The notes below the pieces were generated by a model, which was not told the origin of the DNA, searched no databases, and was given only the letters and a program-made list of their open reading frames with translations. DNA of 64,000 bases from assembly GCA_054600435.1 (NCBI GenBank), contig BAAIJX010000003.1, positions 62,001-126,000 of the forward strand, in the 5' to 3' direction. The stretch's first letter is position 1. Every line of letters starts with the position of its first letter. Origin of the DNA: Neophaeotheca triangularis. Its lineage: Eukaryota. Made by a program: the position numbers and the translations under genes. This document shows positions 5,101 to 20,594 of this stretch, piece after piece.

Positions 5101-5513
5101 TGTGCTTTGGAAGATGGTTGTATTTGGGAATAAATCGATGATTCCGTGGTGTAGGTTGGGTTCGGTGTGTTCGATGCAGAGATAAATGTTGGTTGCTGTT
5201 GGTAGTGAGGTTATGCTGTCTGTAAGAATGGGATCAAGTCGGTTTTATATTCATCTTTACAAGACATCCAACCACTCTCTTCTACTTTCGAGACCATGGT
5301 CAACATGCTATATTCGTTCATGGCACTGCGCCTTGTCGAACGTGGGTCAGGACAACGGACGTGTTTCTCCTACTAGGCACGATGGATTTAGCCAATCGAC
5401 CTACATATGGCTCGTGAGTTTTGTGATCGCTGTTGGCATACACTTGTCACCGCCACATTTGAGCTTGGCTGCGCCTTATAAATATATGTAAACATATATA
5501 GCAAAGCAATTAG

Positions 5514-5665
5514 TGTTGTAATATGTAGCGGTACGAACTCGATTGATTGATTACCAAGGACTAAACTAGGTGCTTTGCAGCAAAGCCTATAAAGACAGGT
5601 TGCGGCTTCTGCAGCTTCTACCTCAGGCATCTGTTACGTGCTACGTAGTACGGCTCATTACAACA
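5514..5665 (-). repeat. Copia 3' LTR (152 bp)
   Basis: Matches 19668-19819 with 8 differences by manual alignment, all transitions. Purine tract AGGGAGAG directly upstream on the minus strand (5666-5673). Confidence 0.96.
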
Positions 5666-5673
5666 CTCTCCCT
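5666..5673 (-). other. Copia polypurine tract
   Basis: Minus strand AGGGAGAG abuts the 3' LTR. Confidence 0.75.
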
Positions 5674-5902
5674 ACTGTCAAGCAACACGTGAATGCCCTT
5701 TTTTTTTTTAGTAGTGACTATGTGAATGCTACGTTTTGCGGCAATTGCCGCTACTACGCGCTACTATGCGTTGTTATGTAGAAGCTACTAGTGATAGGTA
5801 GAAGGTGTTTTGCTATTACTTTCAGGAAGCTCCTAAAAGAACATAGTATTATAAAAAAAGGCCTACTTCTCCTACTATAGTTCTCTAACCTTTCTTACTA
5901 CT

Positions 5903-6750
5903 ATAACCTTCTCTAATAACTAGTCTTGTCTTTACTAGTTACCTTAATACTAATAGCTTTACCTTCTACTAATACTAGCTAGTAATACTAATAACTTTAG
6001 TACTAATAGTAGTATAGCTACTATTAACTAAAGCATAATAGGTAGTATAGGTAGCTCTAGTAGTAGTAAGAAGCTACTAACTAGTACTCCCTCTAGTTAT
6101 GCTATATATGACCTAAACTAGCTAGCTACTTTAAGTAAGTTACTATAGACTAGCTATAAGAATTTCGCTAACATCTTTAGTCCTAAACTATATCTAGCTA
6201 GACCTAGCTACCCTATATAGAATTCGCCGCATTATAGTTAATCTTAGACTAGATAATGTTAAGTAAATACTACTACAATTCCATAATAATGAAGCCTAGT
6301 AGTTCTATACCTCTAATAAGTCCCTAGCCCTAAAGAATGAACTAGAAATAAGGGTAGCTAGTAAGAAATTTTACCTATCTTCTACTAAGAACACTAATTA
6401 CCTCCCTACTACTATGACCTAAGCTACTAAGGGAGGCAAAATTCATGAAGGGGATATAGCTTACACTAGATATAAGAAGGGTAATAGCCCTTAGAAGAAT
6501 TGTGTTATCTTAGAACATAAAGGAAAGAAGTTTATAAAGGGAGCCTATAGTAACTATAGCTATAGTAACTATTTTAACTAATATGACTTCTCTTATAAGT
6601 ACTACTAATATAGGCCAATTTCCGTAGGAATTCTTTACTAATATATAGGTAGCCTATTAACTAGTCCTATAAATAAAGTCTTTATAGGAAACTCTAGTGT
6701 CTTTACTAAGAAGGATAGGGTTAATAGCTAGCTCTCCCGCTCCCCTAATA
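5903..6750 (+). pseudogene. RIP-mutated intron-containing gene antisense to copia pol, encoding a DUF3716-like Cys-rich domain; both ends approximate
   Basis: Plus frame ~6396-6593 reads NYLPTTMT*ATKGGKIHEGDIAYTRYKKGNSP*KNCVILEHKGKKFIKGAYSNYSYSNYFN*YDFS. Reverting TA to TG/CA gives N..AAMAQ...CxRCxKGNGPWKNCV...GACxNC...CDF. Intron GTAAGT(6135)...GCTAAC...TTTAG(6180); probable second intron 6595-6648. Confidence 0.75.
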
Positions 6751-7183
6751 ACTAGTAGATATACTAAAGTGCTAATCCCTAATAGTATTAATTAGAGTAT
6801 ACTAGCTAGGGCTACTATATTTACTTAGGCCTTAAGGTAAAGGGTAGATATCTATAGTAGTAAGTCTACCCTTAATAGGGGAATAGGTCCTAGATCTACA
6901 CTATCTACTATAAGAGCTAGGTCTAGTAGGGAAAGCACCTTTTAGGGCTTCCTAACTTCTATAGGAAGCTCCTCTAGTTCTAGTAGTTCTTCTTCCTCTT
7001 TAAGCCTCTTAGTAAGGAAGGATAATAGCTCTAAGAGTAGTTAGAGTAATCCTAAGGATAGCTAGAAGAAATAAAATAAAGGAAAAGGGTAGTGATGTCC
7101 TATAAGGGTGTTATTTTTTAGGGGATAGTTTCCTAAGGTTTTAGTGTTTTCTAGGGTTTTTTGGGTTTTGTTTCTTAGGTTTC

Positions 7184-7406
7184 TATAAGACTAAGACTAT
7201 GACTCGGTCAGGATTACGGTATAGCGAGAGTAGAACGTAATAATGGTAATAATAGTAATAGTCCTTTAATATAGAAACTATTCGATAGTAGATAGGAGAC
7301 TTTACTATTAGCTATCTCATATACTTTCGTAGTATGTATACTTAGTACTCCTAAGCTACTCTATAGCTTAGACTACTAATATCCTACTAGCGCTATAGTC
7401 GTGACA
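7184..7406 (-). repeat. Gypsy 3' LTR (223 bp)
   Basis: Aligns to 14741-14963 at identical length; minus strand begins TGTCACGAC. Purine tract GAGAGGGAGG at 7411-7420. Confidence 0.95.
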
Positions 7407-7410
7407 ATTA

Positions 7411-7420
7411 CCTCCCTCTC
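7411..7420 (-). other. Gypsy polypurine tract
   Basis: Minus strand GAGAGGGAGG, 4 nt upstream of the 3' LTR. Confidence 0.8.
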
Positions 7421-8119
7421 TAGTAGCTCGTCCTCGAGCTAGTACTTATAAGTACTATTCTTAAGACCCTAGTATAGTATATATATTAGTACCCTCGTTA
7501 AAAACCTCGGTAGTATCTTTACTAAGGAAAAGAGTAATACTATATACTACTATTATACCGTTAGGTTCCTAGAGTATATTTACCCTAAACCTGAGTTCGC
7601 TATAGCGAGGTACGTTATCGTCGCGATAAGTAGTATTAATAGCTATATAGTAGTAATCTAGTAGAGTAGTAATTACTAGTAGAGCCTTAGTATAATTACG
7701 CTATAATTACGTAGAGGTAGTCTACTAGCTACTTCTCTTTCGAAGACTTCCTCCTTCTAACCATAACAATAATAGTCTCTACTCCGTCGTAGTCCCTTTA
7801 GTATACTAGTCTACCTTTTAATAGGGTGACCTTCTTTATTAGTAAGTGAACTTTAGTTCTTTATATATATACTACTATTAGTCTATATACGGTTCCTATT
7901 ATTCTTCGATAATGAAACTAACCTTATCTAGTTTCCTATTATTACCTACTTCTAGTAACCTTTCGAAAACCTCACTTAGCGTAGTTTAATAAAAAGGCGC
8001 TCCTCGTACCTCTAATACCTTCTCCCCTTCTTTATTAACCACTTTTTTCGCGATCTTACTATCGCCTTTTTTTTCGCTAGCTTTATTTACTACCTTCATT
8101 ACTCTACTACTATTCTATT

Positions 8120-9478
8120 ATGTCTCTACATATTAGTAAGCGTATAAAGGTACTAGTCGACTATAGCGTTAGCGCTATAGCTATTAATAGTAAGGGTACC
8201 TTTACTATAGATAGGGCGATTATCGCTAAGGGAGTCTTTATGACTAAGGGCTACTATTAGATCGACACTAGTAACTTTATAGAAGAGGAGTTAAAGGATC
8301 TAGTCGATAAGTCGAAGTCTACTAAGAAGGGTTTAAAGTTAGAGAGTATTAGTACGAAGCGCACTATAGCTACTAAGGGTATAGGCTTGAAACGTAAGTA
8401 TACTATAGATAATAATAGGGAGGAGAGTAGTTCTAAGGAAGATATACTAGTGTTCTATTACCTCGCTAACATCGATAAGGATGTAGAGCTTAATCCTCCT
8501 AACATTAATCGCTCTTATTATTCGTATTATATTAAGGAGCTCTTAAGTAATATTCTTACTAGATCTATCGACTTCATCCTACTATACTAGATAGTGTCTT
8601 CTATAACTAGATCAGTATATAACATCTATTAGGATATAAAGTAGTCCTACCTCGAGGTAAGCCTACTATTACTCTATTATCATTATGAGTTCTCGCTAAT
8701 ATCTTTTTAGATCATTCCTAACCTCGCGAGCTAGTATAGCTACTATGTCTAGATGAACTATACTACTATACTCTATCGTGCTAATCATACTAGTAGTAGT
8801 AGCGCTAGTTCGCTAATATACCTTAAGGTCTTAGAAGTTAATGCTAAGGTCTCCTAGTACTTCTATAAGAATAACCGCGCTGTCATCCTAATAGGGGGCC
8901 TTCGTCGTTCTAGTCCTAATAACGATAAGATCTTAACTCTACATAATATAGTATGCCTAATTATGGATTAAACTCGCAACTTCGCCACGATCATTACTAA
9001 TGCTATCGAGAGGCTTATCGCTATCTACTATATAGAAATGTCTATGCTTATTAACGAGATGTCTAGCTATTATTATGCCATGTCTTCTTCTTCGCCGCTA
9101 TATACGACTCCTAGTGTTAGTGTGTCGCCGCCTTATGATAAGACTATCGGTATACTAGTAGAGGCCCTTAAGGTACTAATGTCGACATCTAGAGCTCTAG
9201 TTCGGAGGAGTAGTAGGGACGATACTAGTATGCTACTAGAGATGTCTTCTAATAAGGATTCTTCTTCTTTATTAGAGTCGGATTAGGAGGACGAGGCTCC
9301 TATAGTACTAGTAGTAATTCCTAGGTATATAACGGAGGTTAAGGGTTTGTTTTAGATAAGTAGTAGGAACGATGACGCTCTATCGGTAGTAGAGAATGTA
9401 GGGGGGTCTATTAGTGCTAAAGATTAGCTATAGGCTAATATTGCTAAGGTTTTAAAGGAGTTAGACACTAGGGCTTAA
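8120..9478 (+). pseudogene. RIP-mutated intron-containing accessory gene (~435 codons) antisense to gypsy pol, with putative six-Cys motif
   Basis: ATG 8120 and track ORFs 8387..8590 and 9038..9286 share one frame, with about 12 internal stops by manual count, all TAG/TAA. 54-nt intron GTAAGC(8657)...GCTAAT...TTTTTAG(8710). Confidence 0.7.
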
Positions 9479-9559
9479 GCGTTTATTTAATCATTTACAT
9501 ACTCTCTATAAGCGCCGTTGTCCTATCGCTAGTCTATCTATAGTAGCTATTAATTAAGA

Positions 9560-12500
9560 AGCTTATATACTATGTCCTTTTCCTATAGTTTTCTTCTTTT
9601 TTCCTAGCTATATATTCTTAACATTCTTTTTCTTTAGGCTTTATGTTTTCTTTCTATGCTTCTTTTTCGCGCTACTATAGGTCTACTAGTGTTACTCGAA
9701 GTCTATAATTACTTCTTTCGCATTATTTAGATGCTTCTCTTTCTCCTAGGTTCTCTCTTCTATTAGCTAATCTCTCTAAAGAACATAGTATGTCTTATTA
9801 CTATTATTATCGAGACTAGATACTGTTATTTCATCGATAACCTATTTATCGCCTCTATCGACTTCTCGCTCTACTAGTAGTACGAAGTCAGTATATTAGT
9901 AGTATAGTTCGAGGAGGGAGATGTAGAAGATATTATAGATCTTTCCGAGGTATAGAGGTAGGGCTAATTAGTATACTTGTTTTCTAACCCTTATTATGAT
10001 TTAGAAGGGCCCTACATAATGTGAGGAGTACTTTTTTGTTAGTCTTAATGTTTTCAGGTTTTTCGCGGAAATAAGAACCTTATTATCGACACTAAATACT
10101 ATAGGATCATGTTTTCGGTTATAGTATTCTGCCTACTTACTAATAGTATACTAAATGTTGTCCTTAATAGCTTCGCGAATTGCTTTCTAGTTTTCAGTTC
10201 TTTCTTAGAGGTTAGGGATTGTCAGTTCGCTACCTCCCTCTCTAATAGCATTATCCATAATACTACTAGGCTGTTAGGGCTCTACTCTATAGATAGTAAA
10301 GAATAGCGACACTTTAGTTAATATACTTATACTATTATTATAGGCAAATTCGGCCTATACGAGGTAATAAGGCTAATCTGTCTATATAAAGTTAACAAAA
10401 TATCATAGATACTATTCTATTATCTAGTTTTGCCTCTCTATCTACCTATCGGACTAAGGGTAGTATGCTGTCGATAACTTACGCTTAGTTTTCTAATACC
10501 GAAAGAGCTCTATCTAAAATGTAGAAGTGAATATACTACCTCTATTAGTTATAATTGAATTTAGCTTACTAAACTTAGTAAGAATTTCATGCTCGAAAAT
10601 ATTAGCTAGTTAGTAGGTCCCTATTACTTCGCTAATAGGGATATACCTCGTGAACTTTAAGAAGCGGTTAACAATAATTAATATAGAATTAACTATTTTA
10701 CCCTTATATGTCTCTATAATAGACAACTTAACTACTATATCTATAGACTAATACTTAAAGATCTTATTAGCACTTAGAACCCTTAGCGATTATAATACGC
10801 TATAGGGCTAGTAATAGCGCGATTTATGTCTTTAGTAGGTATTATACCTAAGGACATACTCTTCGACATCCTTAGTCTACTTAGACCACTAAAACTCCTT
10901 ATAGAAGATAGCTTTAGTCTTCCCTACTCCTAGATATCTTACTAATAGGTCCTTATAGTAGTAGCTTAGTATAGCGGTCTATAGGCTTTCTACTAGTAGT
11001 ATATATACCTTTCTATTAATCTTAAGAAGTCCTATAAAACTAACTAACTATATAGGTATAGCGCTATTAGTATCTCTATAGTACTATCTCTTATCGATCT
11101 CTTTACGAATACATTTAGTAAAGGGATCTCCCTACTATATATGTAACATATCCGCTCTAAGGTTAATTCAGTCTACTACTATGTTAGGCTCTCTAATGTC
11201 TAGCTCGGTAATAGCGAGTATACCTAGCTACTTACCTATAGGGTCATAATAGGTTAGTACTACTATAGTGATAGAGCTAGTCAGGTTTAGTTTACCTCCC
11301 CCTTAGAGCTTTCGCTTAGTGTACATAGTATCATTACTCTAAAGCTTATTATTTAGAGGACTAGTGTCTCTAGTAGCTATTATGTAGCCTACTAGTAAGG
11401 CGGCTAATGTCTAGTAGTTTACTAGCGCTATATACCCTAGCGATATAGATAGGATCTCTACTCTATCTTCGGTAGCTATTATGTAGCTACTCGCTAGAAC
11501 TTTAGTAGCCTTATAGGGGCCTACTAGGGGAGCGAAAAGCCTAGTTAATATAGATAGTATTTCCGCCCTACTTAGTTCTCTATTAGCCTCTATATTAGGA
11601 TAGCGCGAGAGCCTATCTACTCTAGGGTTTAATTTACCTTTATAGTATGTGATCTCGATGTTATATTGCGATAGCTCTTCTATAGCGCGCGCTTAGTAGC
11701 CTAACAATTTCTTTATCGATAGGAAGTATTTCAGATTGTTATAATCTATAAGTACCTAAACTTTACTCTTAGCTAACAATATGTAATACTACTATTAGCA
11801 TATTACCTTAATAATGGTAAGTAGTTCCTAATCATATACTAGATATCGTAACTCTAGCCCTTTAAGCTTCTTAGAGTAGTATACGACCGGATACTATAGT
11901 ATGTCCGAGTGCTTCTATATAAGTATACCTCCTAATACATATCCTAATATATCGGTCTTAAGGTAGGTCTCTAGCATAGCATTAAAGTGCTGTAGTACTA
12001 GTACTGAAATGAAGCTATACTTTAACCTTTTAAAGGATTTTTAGGTATCTTTACCTAGTAGCTACCATTTACTACCGCTATACTATAGGTAGTCTATAAG
12101 GGGAGCGGTAATCTTTACATATCCCTTAATAAAGCGATAATAGAAATTCGCGAATCCTAGGAATACTTAGAGTTCTTTTAAGGACTTTAGTATTAGCTAA
12201 TCCTAAACTATAGCTACCTATAGGGGCTCTATCGCTACTCTAGTAGAGTTAATAATAAAACTAAGGAATCTAATCTCTTAGACTATAAACTCGCATTTCT
12301 TGAGACTAGTATATAGCTTAGCATTAGCGAGCTAACGGTAGACTACTCGAACATGTTCGCGGTATTCTACTTCAGTATAGGAATAGATAAGAACGTTATC
12401 TATATATACTACATAGTAGTAGTTAACTAGCTCTATAAGTATCTTATTAATAAAGGCCTAAAATGACGCTAGTATGTTAGCGAGTCTAAAAGGTATGACC

Positions 12501-14692
12501 TTATATTAGAAATAGCTATACTAATAGTAGAACGCTATCTTCTACTCATCGCCCCGGGCGATACGTAAACAGTAGTATACTTCGACTAAGTCGATTTTCG
12601 AAAACTATGTTGATCTATAGACTCTATCTAAGAGTTTACTAATAAGCGGTAAAGGATACTTGTTCTTAATAGTGATTTCGTTTAAGCCTTAGTAATCGAC
12701 ATATATATAGAGTTTACTGTTTTTCTTCTTAACAAATAGTAATAGTATACTAGTAGGGCTAGTACTAGGCTTAATACGGTCTATCGCGAGTAGGTTATTA
12801 ATCTATAACTACATTTCCTCGAGCTCGGGCTTAGAACATAGGTAGATTAGTCTACTAGGAGGATTCTTCCCCTCGACTAGTTCGACATAGTAGTTATGAA
12901 GTATATATAGAGGTAACTCTTTCGCCTTCTCCGATTTAAACACCTTAGTATACTCTACTAACTACTTAGGTACCTATAGCTCTACTAGGGTCCTATATAG
13001 ATCTTCTATACTAATAGCGAGGATAGATGCTCTACTATTAATATTTTAGGCTAGTTCTTTGGCCTCGATAATTTCGACTTCTTCTTTATTATACATACTA
13101 CTATAGCGCTACTATACTAGTAGCGACGCGAAATCGAGCTATGCTTTTATAGATTAGATCTAAGGCATTCTAAGAATCATTTCATGATCCTTCTAGTTCA
13201 CTACTTCGAACATTTATAGAATGGTCTGAACTATACTGTCTAAATTAGCGACTTTAGTATAGAGTCGACATCAGCCTACTATTAGGGCTTTAATATCGCT
13301 AAAGGCTTATAGCTTACGAATCTAGTCACCCTTTATTAGTAGGTTATACTAGACTACGATGTCTTCTAAGATGACATTATAATGCGCTCTTATATCGATA
13401 AGCCTATAGGCCTTAAAGCGTAATCTGTCGTGGGTTCGATCGTATATCTTTATAACAGCCTATAGGCGCTCTATTAACATACTACCTACTTATCGCCCTA
13501 AGCCTTTAAGGCTAATAATTGAATGACCTAGGGCTAAGCTTTTCCCTTTTAGCAATTTTCTTACTAGTAGCCTTTACTACTATACTTAAAACAAAGGTTT
13601 TCTTTAAGGGCTCTATTGTTTCGTTCGCTACTATTAGTCGAACCTATATAGTTCATACTAGTCGCTAGTGTCCTATTAGTACGCTAGTAGCGCAGTTTAG
13701 AGTTGTTATCGCTTATACTCTAGTTTTGTTCTCTTTTCTTATAGCTAGAACCTCTTAAGTCGGTCTTATGTAGCTTGTCTACTATCTCGCCTCTAGCGTC
13801 CTAGCTACTATAGCTAGTATCGTCGAGACGTATATAAAGCGCGATAAGGTTATACTAGTTATCTAGTACTATTAGCTAGACATTTAGCTTAGTCTTAAGG
13901 TTTTCCTATAGACTAGTCTTAATAAGGGTAAGGAGTATATACTCTAGTAGTAGGGTAATGTTAGCCTTATAGAGGGAGTCTTCGACATATAAGAGGTAGT
14001 CGTGAATAGATTAGGTCGCTCCCTAAATATGTCTAAAACCTCGGAATGCTATGTTTATAGTATGGTTTTTAGGATTGAGGATCTAATCTAGTAGCCATTC
14101 TTTAAACATAGGCTATTTCATCTCTTCACGTTCGAGTCATAACTCTTTACTCTCCTAGTTCTAGCTAATATAGCTATATAGGTAGCCTATAGTATACTAG
14201 ACACACTCGTACTAATAAAAGTAAATATAAGGGTATGTCTTAAATACACGCTCATATTACTAGATAAATATCTATACTTTTAGGAGGTTAGGGTAACTCC
14301 TATAAGCCGCTAGTTTGGCTAAGCGAAAAGCTTTCTCGATATCGATATGAGACTTTCGCTCCTTTATCGTTATACTAGTAAGTAGATCTTCGTCTACTAT
14401 CTACTTATATGCTACTAGGGTAGGGGTAATGTCTACTAGGTCCTCTAGTTCGATATGTCCTCTTTTAGACTCGTTATAGGGGACCGTCGCTCTATTAGTA
14501 GCTCGCTAAATAGACGCTATACGCTCTACTAATTGTTATTAGAGTTCCGTAATAATAGTAGTAAGGACCGTGTATTAGTCTATAGCTACCTCTTCTTGTT
14601 CTTATAGGGTGTTAACTCTAGTAATAGTGTTAGGGGAGTCCGCTAGGTTAGCGTTGTCGACCTATAGGTATAGCGAGCGCGATAGTACTATA
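9560..14692 (-). pseudogene. Gypsy gag-pol (RIP-degraded) with C-terminal chromodomain; ends approximate
   Basis: Gag knuckle LCFKYSSKGY**ENC (~13555-13600, =CxxCxxxxHxxxxC) followed by slippery GGGAAAA. RT YYVVYIDNVLIYS (~12385-12420). Integrase IIVNRFLKFTRYIP and KRKLSTAYYP*SDR*IER*N (~10430-10680). GPF motif ~10010. Chromodomain *VIDEI...YYVL*RD*LIEERT*EKEKHL (~9720-9845). Confidence 0.93.
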
Positions 14693-14740
14693 ATGTCTAA
14701 GCGAATCTTAACCTAAGAAGGTTCTAAGATCGAATAGAAT

Positions 14741-14963
14741 TATAAGACTAAGACTATAACTTAGTTAGGATTATGGCGTAGTAAGGGTAGAACGTAATAA
14801 TAGTAATAATAGTAATAGTCCTTTAATATAGAAACTATTTAATAGTAGACAGGAGACTTCACTATTAGCTATCTCATATACTTTCATAGTATATATACTT
14901 AGTACTCCCGAGCTACTCTATAGCTTAGGCTGCCGATATCCTACTAGCGCCGCGGTCGTGACA
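14741..14963 (-). repeat. Gypsy 5' LTR (223 bp)
   Basis: Pairs with 7184-7406; followed on the minus strand by the primer-site region and gag. Confidence 0.95.
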
Positions 14964-15126
14964 GTTTCTTAGTTAGTATAAAGGGAATACTACATAGTAT
15001 AGTGGGTTTCTCCTAGGATGGTTTTCTAGAGTTAGTATTTTCTTAGGGTAATTTTATAGAGTTTAGAAATAAAGGGAAAATGCTACATCCTATAAGGGTG
15101 TATTGCTCTCTAAGAGTAGGATGATC

Positions 15127-18100
15127 TTAAATCATCTAGTTAGGGGACTTTAGCTTAGTTAGACTATCTACTAGCTACTTAGTAGTATTAATGTATTTAA
15201 CACTAATAACCCCCTTCTCAAGCTACTCCTTATAGTAATAGTTTCTAAGGGATATGTGCTTTAACCGCTTTAAGTTAGTATAGTCTTCTATAAGTAGAAT
15301 AGCTAACTTATTATTAACATGAACTTTAATAGTTTTTAAGCTGAATTCTATTAAAGGCTAAAGTTTAAGGAAAAGATTCTATATCTAGTTAATTTCCCTT
15401 ATAGTCTCTATTAATATAACGTACTCTACCTTAGTACTTAATAGAACAACTTCCTTCTATCTCTAAGATCTCTAGACTATAGGTATACTATTTATAAAAA
15501 TAGCTAAGCTAGATATTAATCTAGATATAGCTAGATTACCTATAAAATCTAAGTCTAAGTAGGCCTTAATAGAAATCCCTTCCTATCTCTTATAGATAAG
15601 CCCTCTATCTATAGTGTCTATAACATATCTCTAGATATATGTTATAGCTATAACATGCTCCTTAGATAGGTTTTAAAGGAACTTTACTAAGTAGTTAACT
15701 ATATGAGACATGTCTAGCCTTATCTAGTTTACTAGGAATTATAGTTCCCTAATTATCTTATTAAAGATATGATAAACCTACTAAGTACATTACTTCTTAG
15801 AAGGTTTATATAGGTAGTTAAGTAGGTACTTAATTGTCCTTACTTAGTCTAGATTATGTCCTTTAAGTTTATTAAGGGTATAATACTTCTAGGATAGCTT
15901 AATAGTATTCCTACTCTCCTTAATATATAGGCTTAGGAAAAGGTTAGTGTCTATCTCCTTAATACTATACTTCTTCTTTATCCCTATAATGAGCTACTTA
16001 ATCTTCTTAAGTTTAGGGCTAAAGATCTAGAAGTTATCTACATGTATTAAAACTAGTACATTGTTACTAGTAAAAAGATATGTATTAGACTTTATCTACT
16101 TTAGTCCTATTAACTTAAGATAGGATATAGTATCTTAGAACTAGAGGTAAGCTATCTACTTAAGACTATATAAGCCCTTATTAATCTTTATAAGCTTACC
16201 CTTCTTATCTTTAAGAATGAGTTTAAGTCCTCCTAGTACCTAGATAAAGATCTGTCTATCTAGATCAGGATTTAAGAATGCTATCTCTATATTAATCTAG
16301 GTTCTACTTTATTTAAGCTAGAATGTAATAGCTAGGAGGATCCTTCCTATTCCTAGCCTTAGTGTTAGTATAAAGGTATTAACATAGTTAGTACCTTATT
16401 TCTATAAGAATCCCCTTATTATCTATCTAGCCTTATATTTATTAATAGAGCTATCTAGGAGAAGCTTTAGCTTAAATACCTACTTCCCTATAAGTGCTCT
16501 TCTACTAGGTAGTAGCTCTAATTACTTAATCTAAGTAATTGTACTAGTAGACTTAAGGCTTTTAATCTCCTTAATTATTATAGCCTTCTACTAGCTTATA
16601 TCCTTTCTACTAAATATATCGTGATAGTCCTTAGGATTATTAGTAGCCTAGGTTATAGCTCTTATATATAACTACCTATAATTCGACGATTTTATAGGCC
16701 TACCTACCCTTATATATATTAAGGGCTAAGGGGATAGTGATCTCTTCCTCTTACTAGTAGTTAGCTAAGGGAAGAATAGTGTTATTAAGGTATCTCCCTA
16801 ATCTTCCTCTATTAGGTTAATAGAGGGCTACTATTACTCTCTCTAGTCTATAGGGGAGACTTCTTAGTACTCTCCCTATTCTATAGAAGAGGCTTCTTAT
16901 TATTACTCTCCCTATTCTATAGGAGAGGCTTAATGTTATTACTCTCCCTTAGGAGAGACTTATTAGTAATCTCCCTTAGGAGAAGATTAGTACTCTCCCT
17001 ACTCTTTAGAGGAGACTTACTAGTATTAGTACTCTCCCTTAGGAGAGGCTTATTAATATTAGTACTCTCCCTTAGGAGAGGCTTATTATTATTACTACTC
17101 TCCCTTAGGAGAGGCTTATTGTTATTACTACTCCTATTATAGGCTATTAAAGTTCTCCTAAAGCCCTAGGATATAAAGGGCTAACTACTCTCCCTAAACT
17201 ATAGGAATCTAAATAGGCCTAAAGTAAGTATCCTTATTAAAGGTTATATATAGGCTTTAAACAATACTAAATAGGTCCTATCTAATTAGTAATATTAGGA
17301 GGTAGTTAGTAGTAGAGTTGTCTTAGAAGCCTATAAACTAGTAGATAGTAGCTCTTAGGGTAAACTTTTCTAATGTAATCCTATTCTAGTTATGTAGGAA
17401 TGCTTTATAGCTAAATCTCCTAAGGTTAGAGAGGTTAATGGTCTAGTCCTTAGATACCTCTAAATCCTCCTTAAGGTATTATAGGGGGATCTTCTTAATC
17501 CTAAGGTTATAGACTATATTAGTAATATAGATTATATAGTTTATAGCTAGGAGCTAGAGATCTCTAGGAATACTAAAGTTAATCATTATTACCCTAGCCT
17601 TAGCTAGGATGGTTTTATTAGATAACTCTATAATACTATTCTATTTAGGAGTCTTTAGACTTAAGATGTCCTATCTCATCCCTATCTACTATACTATAGT
17701 AATTAAATTATAGTTGATAAACTCCCTACTACTATTAGAGAACTATATCTTTAGTATCTTATTATAGGTATTTATAGTTCTTACTATAAAATTCCTAATG
17801 AGTAATAGTACCTCACTTTTATTTCCTATAAAGAGAGGCTACCTAAACCTGGTTTTAGAATCTATTAGGAAGATAATATACCTTAGACTAGTACTAGAGG
17901 TTAGTGTGATAGGGCTAACTATGTTAACATGTATCTTATCTAGAGCTTAACTAGTCCTTACTCTTAAGGTTCTTAAGACAATCCTTTAAGACTTTAAGAG
18001 TTTATAGACATTATAGTAGCCTAGAGCTATAGTGTTTACTACTTCAAGTCTAGTTATGTGTTATTTAGTAGCATTAAGAATATTACTACTAATGTGGCCT

Positions 18101-19575
18101 AGTCTTTAGTACTATCTAGTTATATCTATCCTTAGCGCTAATACTACTAGTACTACTAGTAATCTTAGTATAGCTATTACTATTAATAGTAGGCTTTATT
18201 ACTAAGGTAGTAGGAGGATTTTAACATTTTATATAACATCTACCTTATGAACTTACTTCACTATTCTAATAGTGCTTTTATTAGACCTTAGCTTATTAGT
18301 ATATCTATCTAGAGCAATCCTATACTTCTAGTATAGTGTGTCTACATAAATTAAGTTAGTAGAGGATCTTAAGGAGTATAGGACGTTCTTTAGGGTAATA
18401 CTAAAGATCTTGTTATTATGTTTAAGGGAAAGCTTAACTATCCCTAAATAGGTAATAGAGGCCTATCTAATAGTCTAGCTAAAGGTAATTAGCTTCCTAA
18501 GGGGCTTAATATCCTAAAAATGCTTAAGCTTATTAAAGAAAGAGAAGGATAATCTAGAGTTTAAGATAATAGTAATTTCTAGTACTATAGCTTATAGTAC
18601 TATAGGGAGAGATAGAGTAACACTTAACATACCTCCTAAAGATAAGGATAAGATTAACTTAGCGTTACTATTATCACTATTATTAATAGCTGTAGTAGCT
18701 TTTCTCCCCTTCTTCTTAGTAGACTTAGTATTCCTATTCTTCCTTATATCTTTCTTCTTTCTCCCCTCCTACTTATCCTTATTACTATCTTTACCTTTCT
18801 TATATTATTTAGGTACCTACTTTAGGTACTACTTAAAGCATTTAGTATTAGTGTGTTAGTAGTGATTATATTAGGTATAGATATTACCTTTTACTACCCC
18901 TATAAACCCCTATATCCTTCTCTATTACTAAGATAGGGGAGGTAGGGCCTTAGACCTAAGACTAGTAATTATATCCTCTAAGCATTTCCTACTCTAAAGG
19001 AGGTTATTATGTCTCTAAGTCCTAAGCTACTCTATATTAAGAGTACCCCCTTTAAAGAGAATCTTAATGTAGTTATCTAGGAGACTAATACTAGCTATAT
19101 TTGTCTAGTTCCTTAGAGTAACCTACTAGTCTATAGCTCTCTTAAAGGTCTAGTAAGCTACTATAAACTCTTAGTAATACTTTAGGGTATTTATTCCTTA
19201 TAGCTTAATGCTATAGAGGTTAGAGATAGCCTTATAGAGAGTAATTATAACATTAGGCCTATAGATAGATTTGATATACTTAAATAGCTTATAGGCTGTC
19301 TTATGTGATATATTATAGTTAGGTCTATATTCGTCTAATAGCCTTTCTATAATAATACTATATATAAGTATATCTTTCTTATAGAACTTAACTATAGTAT
19401 CCCTTATAGATAATACTAGTTAGACTACCTTTAGTAGCTATTTAAGGTCATGAAACATATAGTTAAGATAGTCCTTATTAAGTAGCTTACTCTTTAGGAT
19501 AGCCTCTTAGATACTAAAGATTATGTTCTTTTTAAGGATCTTATTGTCCTTAGCTCCCTTATTATTTGTGTCTAT
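15127..19575 (-). pseudogene. Copia gag-pol polyprotein (RIP-degraded); ends approximate
   Basis: Knuckle YT*YNHY*HTNTKC (~18840-18880). Pre-integrase *Y*RLGHIS (=WHQRLGH, ~18090-18115). Integrase LDKIHVNIVSP (~17915-17945). RT INIEIAFLN, GLYSLK*, LIHVDNF (~16030-16295). RNase H LSTKVEY, KRLKHI, *LVDSLTK (~15150-15445). Confidence 0.93.
16830..17135. repeat. Tandem repeat (~9 units of ~24-39 nt, core ACTCTCCCTTAGGAGAGGCTT) in the copia INT-RT linker
   Basis: Repeat visible directly. It reads NNNKPLLRES-like in the pol frame and produces the spurious ORF 16933..17142. Confidence 0.85.
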
Positions 19576-19650
19576 TTTGTTTAACTAGGGATAGTTATCC
19601 TAGGAATTGTTCGTAATTAGCTAGTTTTATGCTCGCTTATGTAGATTGAT

Positions 19651-19667
19651 GCGCTAGGCTCATAACC
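19651..19667 (-). other. Copia primer-binding site complementary to the anticodon arm of initiator tRNA-Met
   Basis: Minus strand GGTTATGAGCCTAGCGC directly follows the 5' LTR. Plus strand GCGCTAGGCTCATAACC resembles the tRNAiMet anticodon stem-loop with its CAT anticodon. Confidence 0.85.
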
Positions 19668-19819
19668 TGTTGTAATATGTAGCGGCACGAACTCGATTGA
19701 TTGATTACTAAGGACTAAACTAGGTGCTTTGCAGCAAAGCCTGTAAAGACAGGTTGCGGCTTCTGCAGCTTCTGCCTCAGGCATCCGTCACGTGCTGCGC
19801 AGTACGGCTCATTACAACA
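19668..19819 (-). repeat. Copia 5' LTR (152 bp)
   Basis: Pairs with 5514-5665; flanked by the ATTAG target-site duplication at 19820-19824. Confidence 0.96.
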
Positions 19820-20594
19820 ATTAGAAGGATCGTGAGAGATTTACTCCCGTAGGCCCTCCGACCCATGATCACCGAGGTCGTGCTTGATTCATAGCTCAGT
19901 GGTTACTAATTATAACTTATATGTAGCTGCACCGCCGCCTGCTCCATACGATGGATTTTGGCCGAATCTAACGACACGATTGAGAACAGGCGACCATTGG
20001 ATTATGGCATAGTCCAGCTCAATCTCAAACTGTCGAATGCCACAAACTAAACTCATCAGCTGTGCGCTAGTGTCTGCATTCCAAGACACGACAGCAAATT
20101 CTTACGAGTCTAGCTATCCTTCCTCACATATAATAGCTAGCAAAAGCAGATTCCATCACGACAGACCCGCAAACTTCAGACTCATCTGGTCGTGGCACCC
20201 CACGCCTGCTACCGAGTTCAGCAGCAGTAATCGCCTCAAAGCTAGAGAAATGCTGTGGATGATACGCCCATACCAATGATGAGGGACGTGGAGTTTAGAG
20301 CTGGGCAAGATAGACAGATACCATCGGTTCGAGGCCAGGATGAAGCTGTTGGATAGGGACATTCATCGCTCGCTCCAAGGGTACTATTATAAGCGAGAGT
20401 TTCCCGTCCCTATACCTGTCTCCTTTCATCCAATCGAACGAATGCTTCGCCGTATGCTCATGAGTCCAACCCGGAAACCAAGCACTCTCATCCCAAAATC
20501 CCCTTTTTCGAACCCACTGAACCAGCACTCACGTCCCTGCCCCCACCGAATCATCCCCCGCCATGGAAACCCAACTAGACAAACTGGAGGAATC

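Follow-up and report, generated by a model that had tools for sequence, protein, structure and literature searches.

A decayed fungal Ty1/copia retrotransposon with an antisense, intron-containing DUF3716-like gene

A stretch of 64,000 nucleotides from the fungus Neophaeotheca triangularis (assembly GCA_054600435.1, contig BAAIJX010000003.1, positions 62,001 to 126,000 of the forward strand; hereafter, the window) contains a long terminal repeat (LTR) retrotransposon of the Ty1/copia type, a class of textbook two-gene (gag-pol) elements. The best explanation of its structure, to which a probability of about 80% can be given, is that of a dead copy, altered by repeat-induced point mutation (RIP), of a copia family whose standard structure includes an extra gene: a three-exon gene of the DUF3716 family, which lies past the pol stop, ahead of the polypurine tract, and runs antisense to gag-pol. 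This reading is carried by the homology of the gene to DUF3716 proteins, by its exon-intron structure, by its orientation, convergent with pol in each of two diverged elements, and by the presence of the same segment in other copies of the family.

Homology of the antisense gene

A first-pass annotation, made from the letters of the sequence, had placed an antisense DUF3716-like gene with an intron at 5903-6750, in the copia element. The plus-frame translation of 6282-6750, with its stops masked as X (P0001), was used as the query of an exhaustive HMMER search against 1,835,955,588 representative proteins, and 10 proteins were found at E<=1e-3. The top match, P0002 (E=1.9e-31), shares 62% identity with the query along residues 2-105 of the latter and is annotated as a hypothetical protein in the Dothideomycete Neophaeotheca triangularis. 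Eight of these 10 proteins exceed Pfam's own cut-off for DUF3716 (PF12511, gathering cut-off of 22 bits), among them P0002 with 37.7 bits and P0003 with 48.8 bits, and the alignment of the window gene to P0002 spans the DUF3716 domain, so that the antisense gene proposed at the outset is borne out by its homology to proteins that score above the family's own limit. A profile of eight intact relatives, compared with the six frames of the 64-kb window, had its only matches in two plus-strand segments that differ in frame, 6195-6608 (E=1.3e-39) and 6679-7089 (domain E=6e-6).

Other searches were less productive. A word-indexed protein search with the RIPed query kept none of seven candidates, the intact P0002 found only itself (one of 879 candidates), and the profile of eight proteins found four. 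A scan of IMG/VR with an alignment of three proteins gave 50 pattern matches and no relative, whereas a sequence search of the PDB gave nothing at E<=1. AlphaFold models were poor (predicted local distance difference test, pLDDT, of 49.2 for P0002 and 62.8 for an 80-residue core), and the structure searches were unusable (best Foldseek E of 1.5; best Z of 3.1 in the wide VIA-align search), so no fold is claimed for the protein.

The two matches that lack a DUF3716 score, P0009 and P0010, are rich in Tyr and poor in Cys. When they are compared with P0008 or P0002, changes of the C>T/G>A type run one way (46 against 5, 25 against 4 and 18 against 2), whereas comparisons among intact proteins are far more even (10 against 24, 27 against 29, 4 against 9 and 12 against 21). 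This one-sidedness indicates that P0009 and P0010 are RIP-mutated copies from other genomes and, therefore, that the gene is repeated DNA in those genomes too. Public protein libraries thus hold RIP-mutated gene calls without any Pfam match, such as these two, which could mislead family alignments.

A second, diverged element

Three relatives, used as queries against JGI metagenome contigs, gave a single locus, L001, on a contig of 2033 bp that is not RIPed. Its plus strand holds an intact gene of 302 codons, with an ATG at 466 and no internal stop, divided into exons at 466-607, 654-1070 and 1118-1470 by two introns at 608-653 (46 nt, GTGAGT..CAG) and 1071-1117 (47 nt, GTAAGT..CAG). Stop-to-stop plus frames over these exons reach 112, 154 and 118 codons, compared with at most 96 codons on the minus strand over the gene; since L001 is open on the plus strand over all of its exons, the gene is antisense to gag-pol.

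The minus strand of the same contig carries a pol C-terminus that is 58% identical (29/50, E=3e-20) to the end of the copia pol in the window, with 14 further positions explained by RIP. The pol end and the DUF3716 gene are therefore convergent in both elements, their stops lying 396 bp apart in L001 and 246 bp apart in the window once the nested gypsy element (see below) is subtracted. Moreover, the accessory proteins of the window and L001 agree at 91 of 270 positions, RIP accounting for 52 more, and this divergence indicates that the layout has outlasted considerable sequence change. A pyrimidine run, the would-be polypurine tract of L001, lies about 78 bp before its ATG.

Exon-intron structure of the gene

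The annotated span of 5903-6750 did fall on the gene, but stopped short of its full extent, as a second intron and the last exon had been missed. Homology continues beyond both limits, upstream in another frame past the first intron and downstream in a third frame, and on this comparison the gene is larger, with three exons and two introns on the plus strand from 5972 to about 7095. Exon 1 (5972-6134) ends in phase 1 and would encode a Gly-rich N-terminus that now reads as Ser-rich; the ATA at 5972 in the window aligns with the Met of P0008, 34 residues leading from there to a conserved KK in both. Intron 1 (6135-6180) is 46 nt long (GTAAGT...CTAAC...TAG) and agrees in position and phase with the L001 intron at 608-653. 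Exon 2 (6181-6594) comprises a conserved helical region, the NTNYLP motif and, at about 6456-6593, the Cys-rich DUF3716 core. Intron 2 (6595-6652, 58 nt), with a branch-like TACTAAT and a TAG acceptor, corresponds in position and phase to the L001 intron at 1071-1117; its donor in the window is ATAAGT, one G>A change (TpG>TpA) away from GTAAGT. Finally, exon 3 (6653-7095) shows SSPRRMG-like and Y.KVPIP.GI.Q.TP motifs and a low-complexity tail whose closing KGKG, shared with P0007 and P0008, precedes the stops. The 306 bp that precede the gene on the same strand (5666-5971), of which 5666-5830 is not RIPed, would hold its promoter and 5′ untranslated region.

Once spliced, the window frame aligns with L001 and, over residues 2-340 and as far as the C-terminal KGKG, with P0008; neither junction requires a gap, and both introns are in phase 1 in the window as well as in L001. 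Four intron-like strings occur in the 13.8 kb of RIPed DNA when both strands are counted, and it is the homology, rather than the consensus string, that validates intron 1. The intron proposed at 6135-6180 is, by this comparison, real: spliced homologs align gaplessly across it, and a 46-nt GT..AG intron occupies the same codon position, in the same phase, in L001. The encoded protein would have about 300-340 residues, with a predicted order of Gly-rich basic N-terminus, conserved helical stretch, NTNYLP motif, Cys-rich DUF3716 core and Gly/Ser/Arg-rich tail. The core (C-x2-C ... C ... C-x2-C ... C) presumably binds metal.

RIP signature in the window copy

The alignment of the window gene with P0002 covers 175 positions, 96 of them identical. 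Among the 79 mismatches, 60 can be derived from the residue of the homolog by C>T/G>A changes alone, compared with two in the reverse direction, and the 13 window stops in this alignment face Gln (12) or Trp (1) in the homolog. These figures are plain counts.

The core Cys codons follow the same trend. The first-pass annotation had pointed to TAC/TAT codons at 6462, 6471, 6546, 6555 and 6582 and to a TGT at 6501; the codons are as it gave them, and relatives carry Cys there. P0002 has Cys at 6462, 6471, 6555 and 6582, and also at the retained TGT of 6501, while the window TAG at 6492 is Trp in P0002. At 6546 P0002 itself has Tyr, and Cys is present in six of the seven other intact relatives that reach this column; P0004 reads Ser-Cys around it and P0006 ends just before. 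Aligned relatives share a core of C-x2-C, C, C-x2-C and C, of which the window keeps a relic with one TGT (6501) and five TAY codons out of six, each TAY (6462, 6471, 6546, 6555 and 6582) being one G>A change from TGY. An 'N..AAMAQ' motif proposed after RIP reversion also finds its counterpart, as the window reads NYLPTTMT* where P0002 reads NYLPAAMTQ. Overall, the spliced window frame has 21 stops in 340 codons, with 17 Tyr and one Cys. This copy of the gene is dead: besides the 21 stops, neither the start codon nor the intron 2 donor is preserved, and five of the six core Cys codons have become Tyr.

The scarcity of stops in the plus frame, pointed out in the first-pass annotation, is by itself no evidence of coding: over the 156 codons of 6281-6750, this frame is interrupted by 8 stops and the codon-aligned frame on the minus strand by 7. 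Of the six frames in the copia pol region, it is likewise an antisense one that has the fewest stops. Stop-poor frames in RIPed DNA do not reveal the coding strand.

The gene segment in other copies of the family

Contigs from two sequencing runs, X1, the one run that contains the stretch and which bears the same organism label, and X2, an air metagenome, were compared with positions 5400-15600 of the window. In X1, contigs join 7124, 7164 or 7184 to positions between 14964 and 15078, and thus represent copies without the gypsy element in which the segment leads directly into the pol end. In X2, a contig of 6708 bp covers 5516-7188 and continues at 14986-15600, with an unrelated G+C-rich flank at the LTR edge, which shows that the same family occupies another site there; this contig has G/C at 94 sites where the window has A/T, with 60 sites the other way. 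Altogether, three gypsy-less joints in X1 and one in X2 link the segment to pol. The DUF3716 segment is native to the copia family and not a later insertion, and the alternative that had been considered in the first-pass annotation, a one-off later arrival, fails because other copies keep the segment joined to both pol and the LTR. Two other runs with the same organism label, X5 and X6, gave 0 and 3 contigs, respectively, none of them on the copia element, which is no proof of absence.

None of the runs gave a joint at intron 1 or intron 2, while a skip of 46 nt was detected at another place (6198-6245), which suggests that the copies retain their introns. Six other X1 contigs cover site 6502, all with A where the window has G, and the X2 contig also has A; the window alone keeps the Cys codon TGT at this place. 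The contig of P0008 (6462 bp) and that of the X2 copy (6708 bp) are both close to the 6.5-kb length of the gypsy-less copia, as expected if assemblers collapse the repeat to about one element.

The host element and its genomic setting

The window is a gene-rich region of ascomycete type, with about 52-55% G+C and genes that include a carboxylesterase, an INO80 subunit, an RRM protein, a kinase, a GH76 protein, a trehalase and LepA, interrupted by one island of 30-36% G+C at about 5.8-19.6 kb. This island carries the marks of RIP: the indices over 5831-7183 are 2.36 for TA/AT and 0.23 for (CA+TG)/(AC+GT), and the flanks give 0.72 and 1.18. Both copia LTRs have been spared (5514-5830 and 19640-19819, which include 165 bp next to the 3′ LTR), with a (CA+TG)/(AC+GT) of 0.87-1.33, whereas the interior is heavily mutated (0.23-0.30), and the switch near 5830 is abrupt.

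The element lies between two copies of a target-site duplication, ATTAG, at 5509-5513 and 19820-19824. Its LTRs, on the minus strand, are direct repeats of 152 bp at 5514-5665 and 19668-19819, both of the form TGTTG...CAACA; the former is 95% identical to the latter and scarcely RIPed. A purine run on the minus strand, GACAGTAGGGAGAG (5666-5679), adjoins the left LTR and would be the polypurine tract by its position, and the putative primer-binding-site region, GGTTATGAGCCTAGCG (19652-19667, minus strand), adjoins the right one. The latter region presumably resembles the half-tRNA-iMet site of Drosophila copia. The gag-pol region (15127-19651, minus strand) is heavily RIPed and ends in an RNase H-like C-terminus, with the pol stop at 15129-15127. 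The minus strand also encodes a copia-type reverse transcriptase at 16509-15850 (Pfam RVT_2, E=8e-20, 71.9 bits), which, together with the RNase H-like end on the same strand and the purine run at the left LTR, establishes a Ty1/copia element on the minus strand whose left LTR is the 3′ LTR and whose right LTR is the 5′ LTR. The assignment of the host to copia, already made in the first-pass annotation, is thus supported by the reverse transcriptase, the TG..CA LTRs and the 5-bp target duplication. In a Pfam scan of the window, no integrase model was matched at E<=0.01 in the RIPed copia frames.

Without the nested gypsy, the element would measure about 6.5 kb. The distance from the pol stop to the 3′ LTR, with the gypsy and the duplicated GTTTC subtracted, is 158 + 1518 = 1676 bp, in agreement with an earlier estimate of about 1.7 kb of extra DNA between the copia RNase H and the 3′ LTR. 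Within the pol frame, upstream of the reverse transcriptase, tandem repeats of 33 bp (some of 27-36 bp) occupy 16850-17133 and read on the minus strand as a repeated 11-residue 'SPKGE'-like unit. They probably form a variable linker, most likely after the integrase that Pfam did not detect.

The nested Ty3/gypsy element (7184-14963, minus strand) encodes RVT_1, RNase H, an integrase zinc domain and a Tf2 SH3 domain. Its LTRs, of about 225 bp, are 88% identical, its target duplication GTTTC is found at 7179-7183 and 14964-14968, and it begins 88 bp beyond the stop of the DUF3716 gene. About 2.4 kb separate its last recognisable pol domain (Tf2 SH3, near 9900) from its 3′ LTR (7184-7408); the DUF3716 profile of eight relatives has no match in the gypsy from 7409 to 9900.

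Discussion

Antisense open reading frames between pol and the 3′ LTR, known as aORF-3R, have been described in Grande (gene23, maize), RIRE2 (rice), Retand (Silene), the plant element PvRetro13 and Boty of Botrytis (brtn), and their products are described there as lacking clear similarity to known proteins (PMC7264820). In the same account, these genes are presumed to have a promoter of their own and a regulatory role (PMC7264820). As in the copia element of the window, the extra gene is antisense to gag-pol and not confined to a single copy; in those families most copies keep it. The pol of Boty carries a chromodomain, and Grande, RIRE2, Retand and Boty are Ty3/gypsy elements. Unlike those elements, the host described here is of the Ty1/copia type and comes from a Dothideomycete-like fungus; its extra gene contains two conserved introns and encodes a product of the Pfam family DUF3716.

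A different parallel is offered by REP9 of Zymoseptoria, an IS3EU-type class II transposon with two DUF3716 genes, REP9-1 and REP9-2 (PMC8232023). Like the copia element, REP9 is a fungal mobile element in which DUF3716 genes sit beside a transposition enzyme, but it is a DNA transposon with an integrase-like transposase and has no antisense layout within LTRs. DUF3716 is also present in host genes: PSC58 of F. graminearum is a DUF3716 protein and the ortholog of N. crassa NCU05718 (PMC10776026), which is reported to bind double-stranded TTAGGG directly, with a binding part that the study did not map to the DUF3716 domain (PMC4650311). These two genes share their Pfam domain with the copia gene and provide the only biochemical lead, DNA binding, but they are chromosomal host genes and not borne by an element. 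Among reverse-transcribing elements, the human retrovirus HTLV-1 (human T-cell leukaemia virus type 1) has an antisense gene, HBZ, which is spliced and encodes a bZIP protein. Like the copia gene, HBZ is accessory, spliced and antisense, and sits at the 3′ end of its element; it differs in host, in its bZIP product and in having no sequence relation to the gene in the window. An antisense promoter lies in the 3′ LTR of HTLV-1 (PMC7264820). The text of 'LTR Retrotransposons in Fungi' (PMC3248453) contains neither 'antisense' nor 'opposite strand', and the open-access literature gave no report in which a Ty1/copia element carries a DUF3716 gene, or a fungal copia any spliced antisense gene, subscription papers and Repbase lying outside the scope of the search. 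Within that scope, the layout is known from a few other retrotransposons and is unreported for a fungal copia.

The expression of the gene would start from its own promoter, beside the 3′ LTR, in the 306 bp before the start, or inside the LTR itself. In the full-length minus-strand RNA, its introns would be present as reverse complements, would remain unspliced and would be copied into each new insertion. The same logic underlies antisense-intron reporter cassettes of the his3AI/neoAI type, in which a backward intron is not spliced from the RNA of the element and is carried into the new copies; such cassettes are engineered, whereas in the copia two introns are arranged in this way by nature. 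Antisense orientation may thus be the reason why the introns survive: the logic is sound, and no intron-less copy was seen.

As for the role of the protein, the relatives have Gly-rich basic ends, an invariant N-x-N-Y motif and six conserved Cys, with an Arg/Gly-rich tail in P0007 and P0008, a composition that suggests nucleic-acid binding. Tentatively, the product might bind nucleic acids and help or regulate the element, in transcription, in nuclear steps or in the choice of integration sites; integration targeting, transcriptional control and RNA handling are indistinguishable on present data. A broader and more speculative proposal, which at present looks rather improbable, is that DUF3716 is at root a module of mobile elements, a metal-binding DNA- or RNA-binding helper of both transposon classes, whose host genes are domesticated copies. 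Such a module could steer integration or transcription to repeats, for instance to telomere-like or AT-rich DNA. If this were true, NCU05718, with its binding to TTAGGG, and the sexual-stage gene PSC58 would be domesticated copies, and the copia lineage would provide a natural spliced antisense accessory gene in elements of the Pseudoviridae type.

Several other explanations of the segment have to be weighed. A chance capture of a host DUF3716 gene could have left the copia lineage with a passenger of no benefit, the likeness of its copies reflecting recent amplification; the occurrence of DUF3716 in ordinary host genes such as PSC58 and NCU05718 is compatible with this idea, as is the plain annotation of P0002 as a hypothetical protein on a 188-kb contig. 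However, the diverged L001 keeps the convergent layout, both intron positions and an intact frame of 302 codons, and a neutral passenger would have decayed over the distance between L001 and the window, all of which makes this explanation unlikely. Somewhat less plausible still is that the antisense RNA is itself the working product, which would pair with the final 1.4 kb of the genomic RNA and, through the resulting double-stranded RNA, tune or silence the element. Such a transcript would indeed be fully complementary to the genomic RNA, and the possibility has been raised for antisense extra reading frames in general (PMC7264820), but a reading frame, a Cys pattern and splice sites conserved across relatives of 33-62% identity are not required by a role of RNA alone.

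A later insertion into this one copia copy, either of a REP9-like DNA transposon bearing DUF3716 or of a gene fragment, has a precedent in the DUF3716 genes carried by the class II transposon REP9 in Zymoseptoria (PMC8232023), and is nevertheless very improbable. The segment is continuous from LTR to pol in copies of the same run and at another site in another sample, 5666-7183 shows no second target duplication, terminal repeat or transposase (IS3EU-type included), and L001 has the same layout. The least credible alternative is that there never was a gene and that the Tyr codons, in RIPed DNA rich in TA, fall into their pattern by chance. When all six frames of this DNA are read, 7.9% of the codons are Tyr; stops are just as rare in the codon-aligned frame of the other strand, and part of the motif is a near-repeat, but a pattern without a gene is ruled out by the homology of P0001 (E=1.9e-31 among 1.84 billion proteins), by the profile search (E=1.3e-39) and by the direction of the C>T/G>A mismatches (60 against 2).

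Some points, on the other hand, weigh against the preferred reading, that of a dead, RIP-mutated copy of a copia family with its own antisense DUF3716 gene. The arrangement is seen in one independent diverged element, L001, whose contig of 2033 bp has no LTR in view. The translation of the window itself, with stops as X or with Tyr also masked, matches no Pfam family, and membership of the window gene in DUF3716 follows from transitive homology; a score below the PF12511 cut-off is, in any case, expected after the changes from Cys to Tyr, and hence says little about ancestry. The start codon, placed by alignment with P0008, and the exact stop are likewise predictions, and the lead on function derives from one biochemical result for a distant family member, NCU05718.

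In the preferred reading, a fungal Ty1/copia element joins the short list of retroelements with accessory genes, with a product that, unlike those of the plant examples, belongs to a recognisable family. DUF3716, a domain of unknown function found in many fungi, gains a context, as it rides a retrotransposon here and a DNA transposon elsewhere, and this mobile-element context makes a role of the domain in nucleic-acid binding or in the control of elements directly testable. For the annotation of fungal genomes, it also carries a warning: a 'hypothetical protein' that carries DUF3716 may come from a transposon gene, and RIP-mutated copies enter the databases as odd Tyr-rich proteins.

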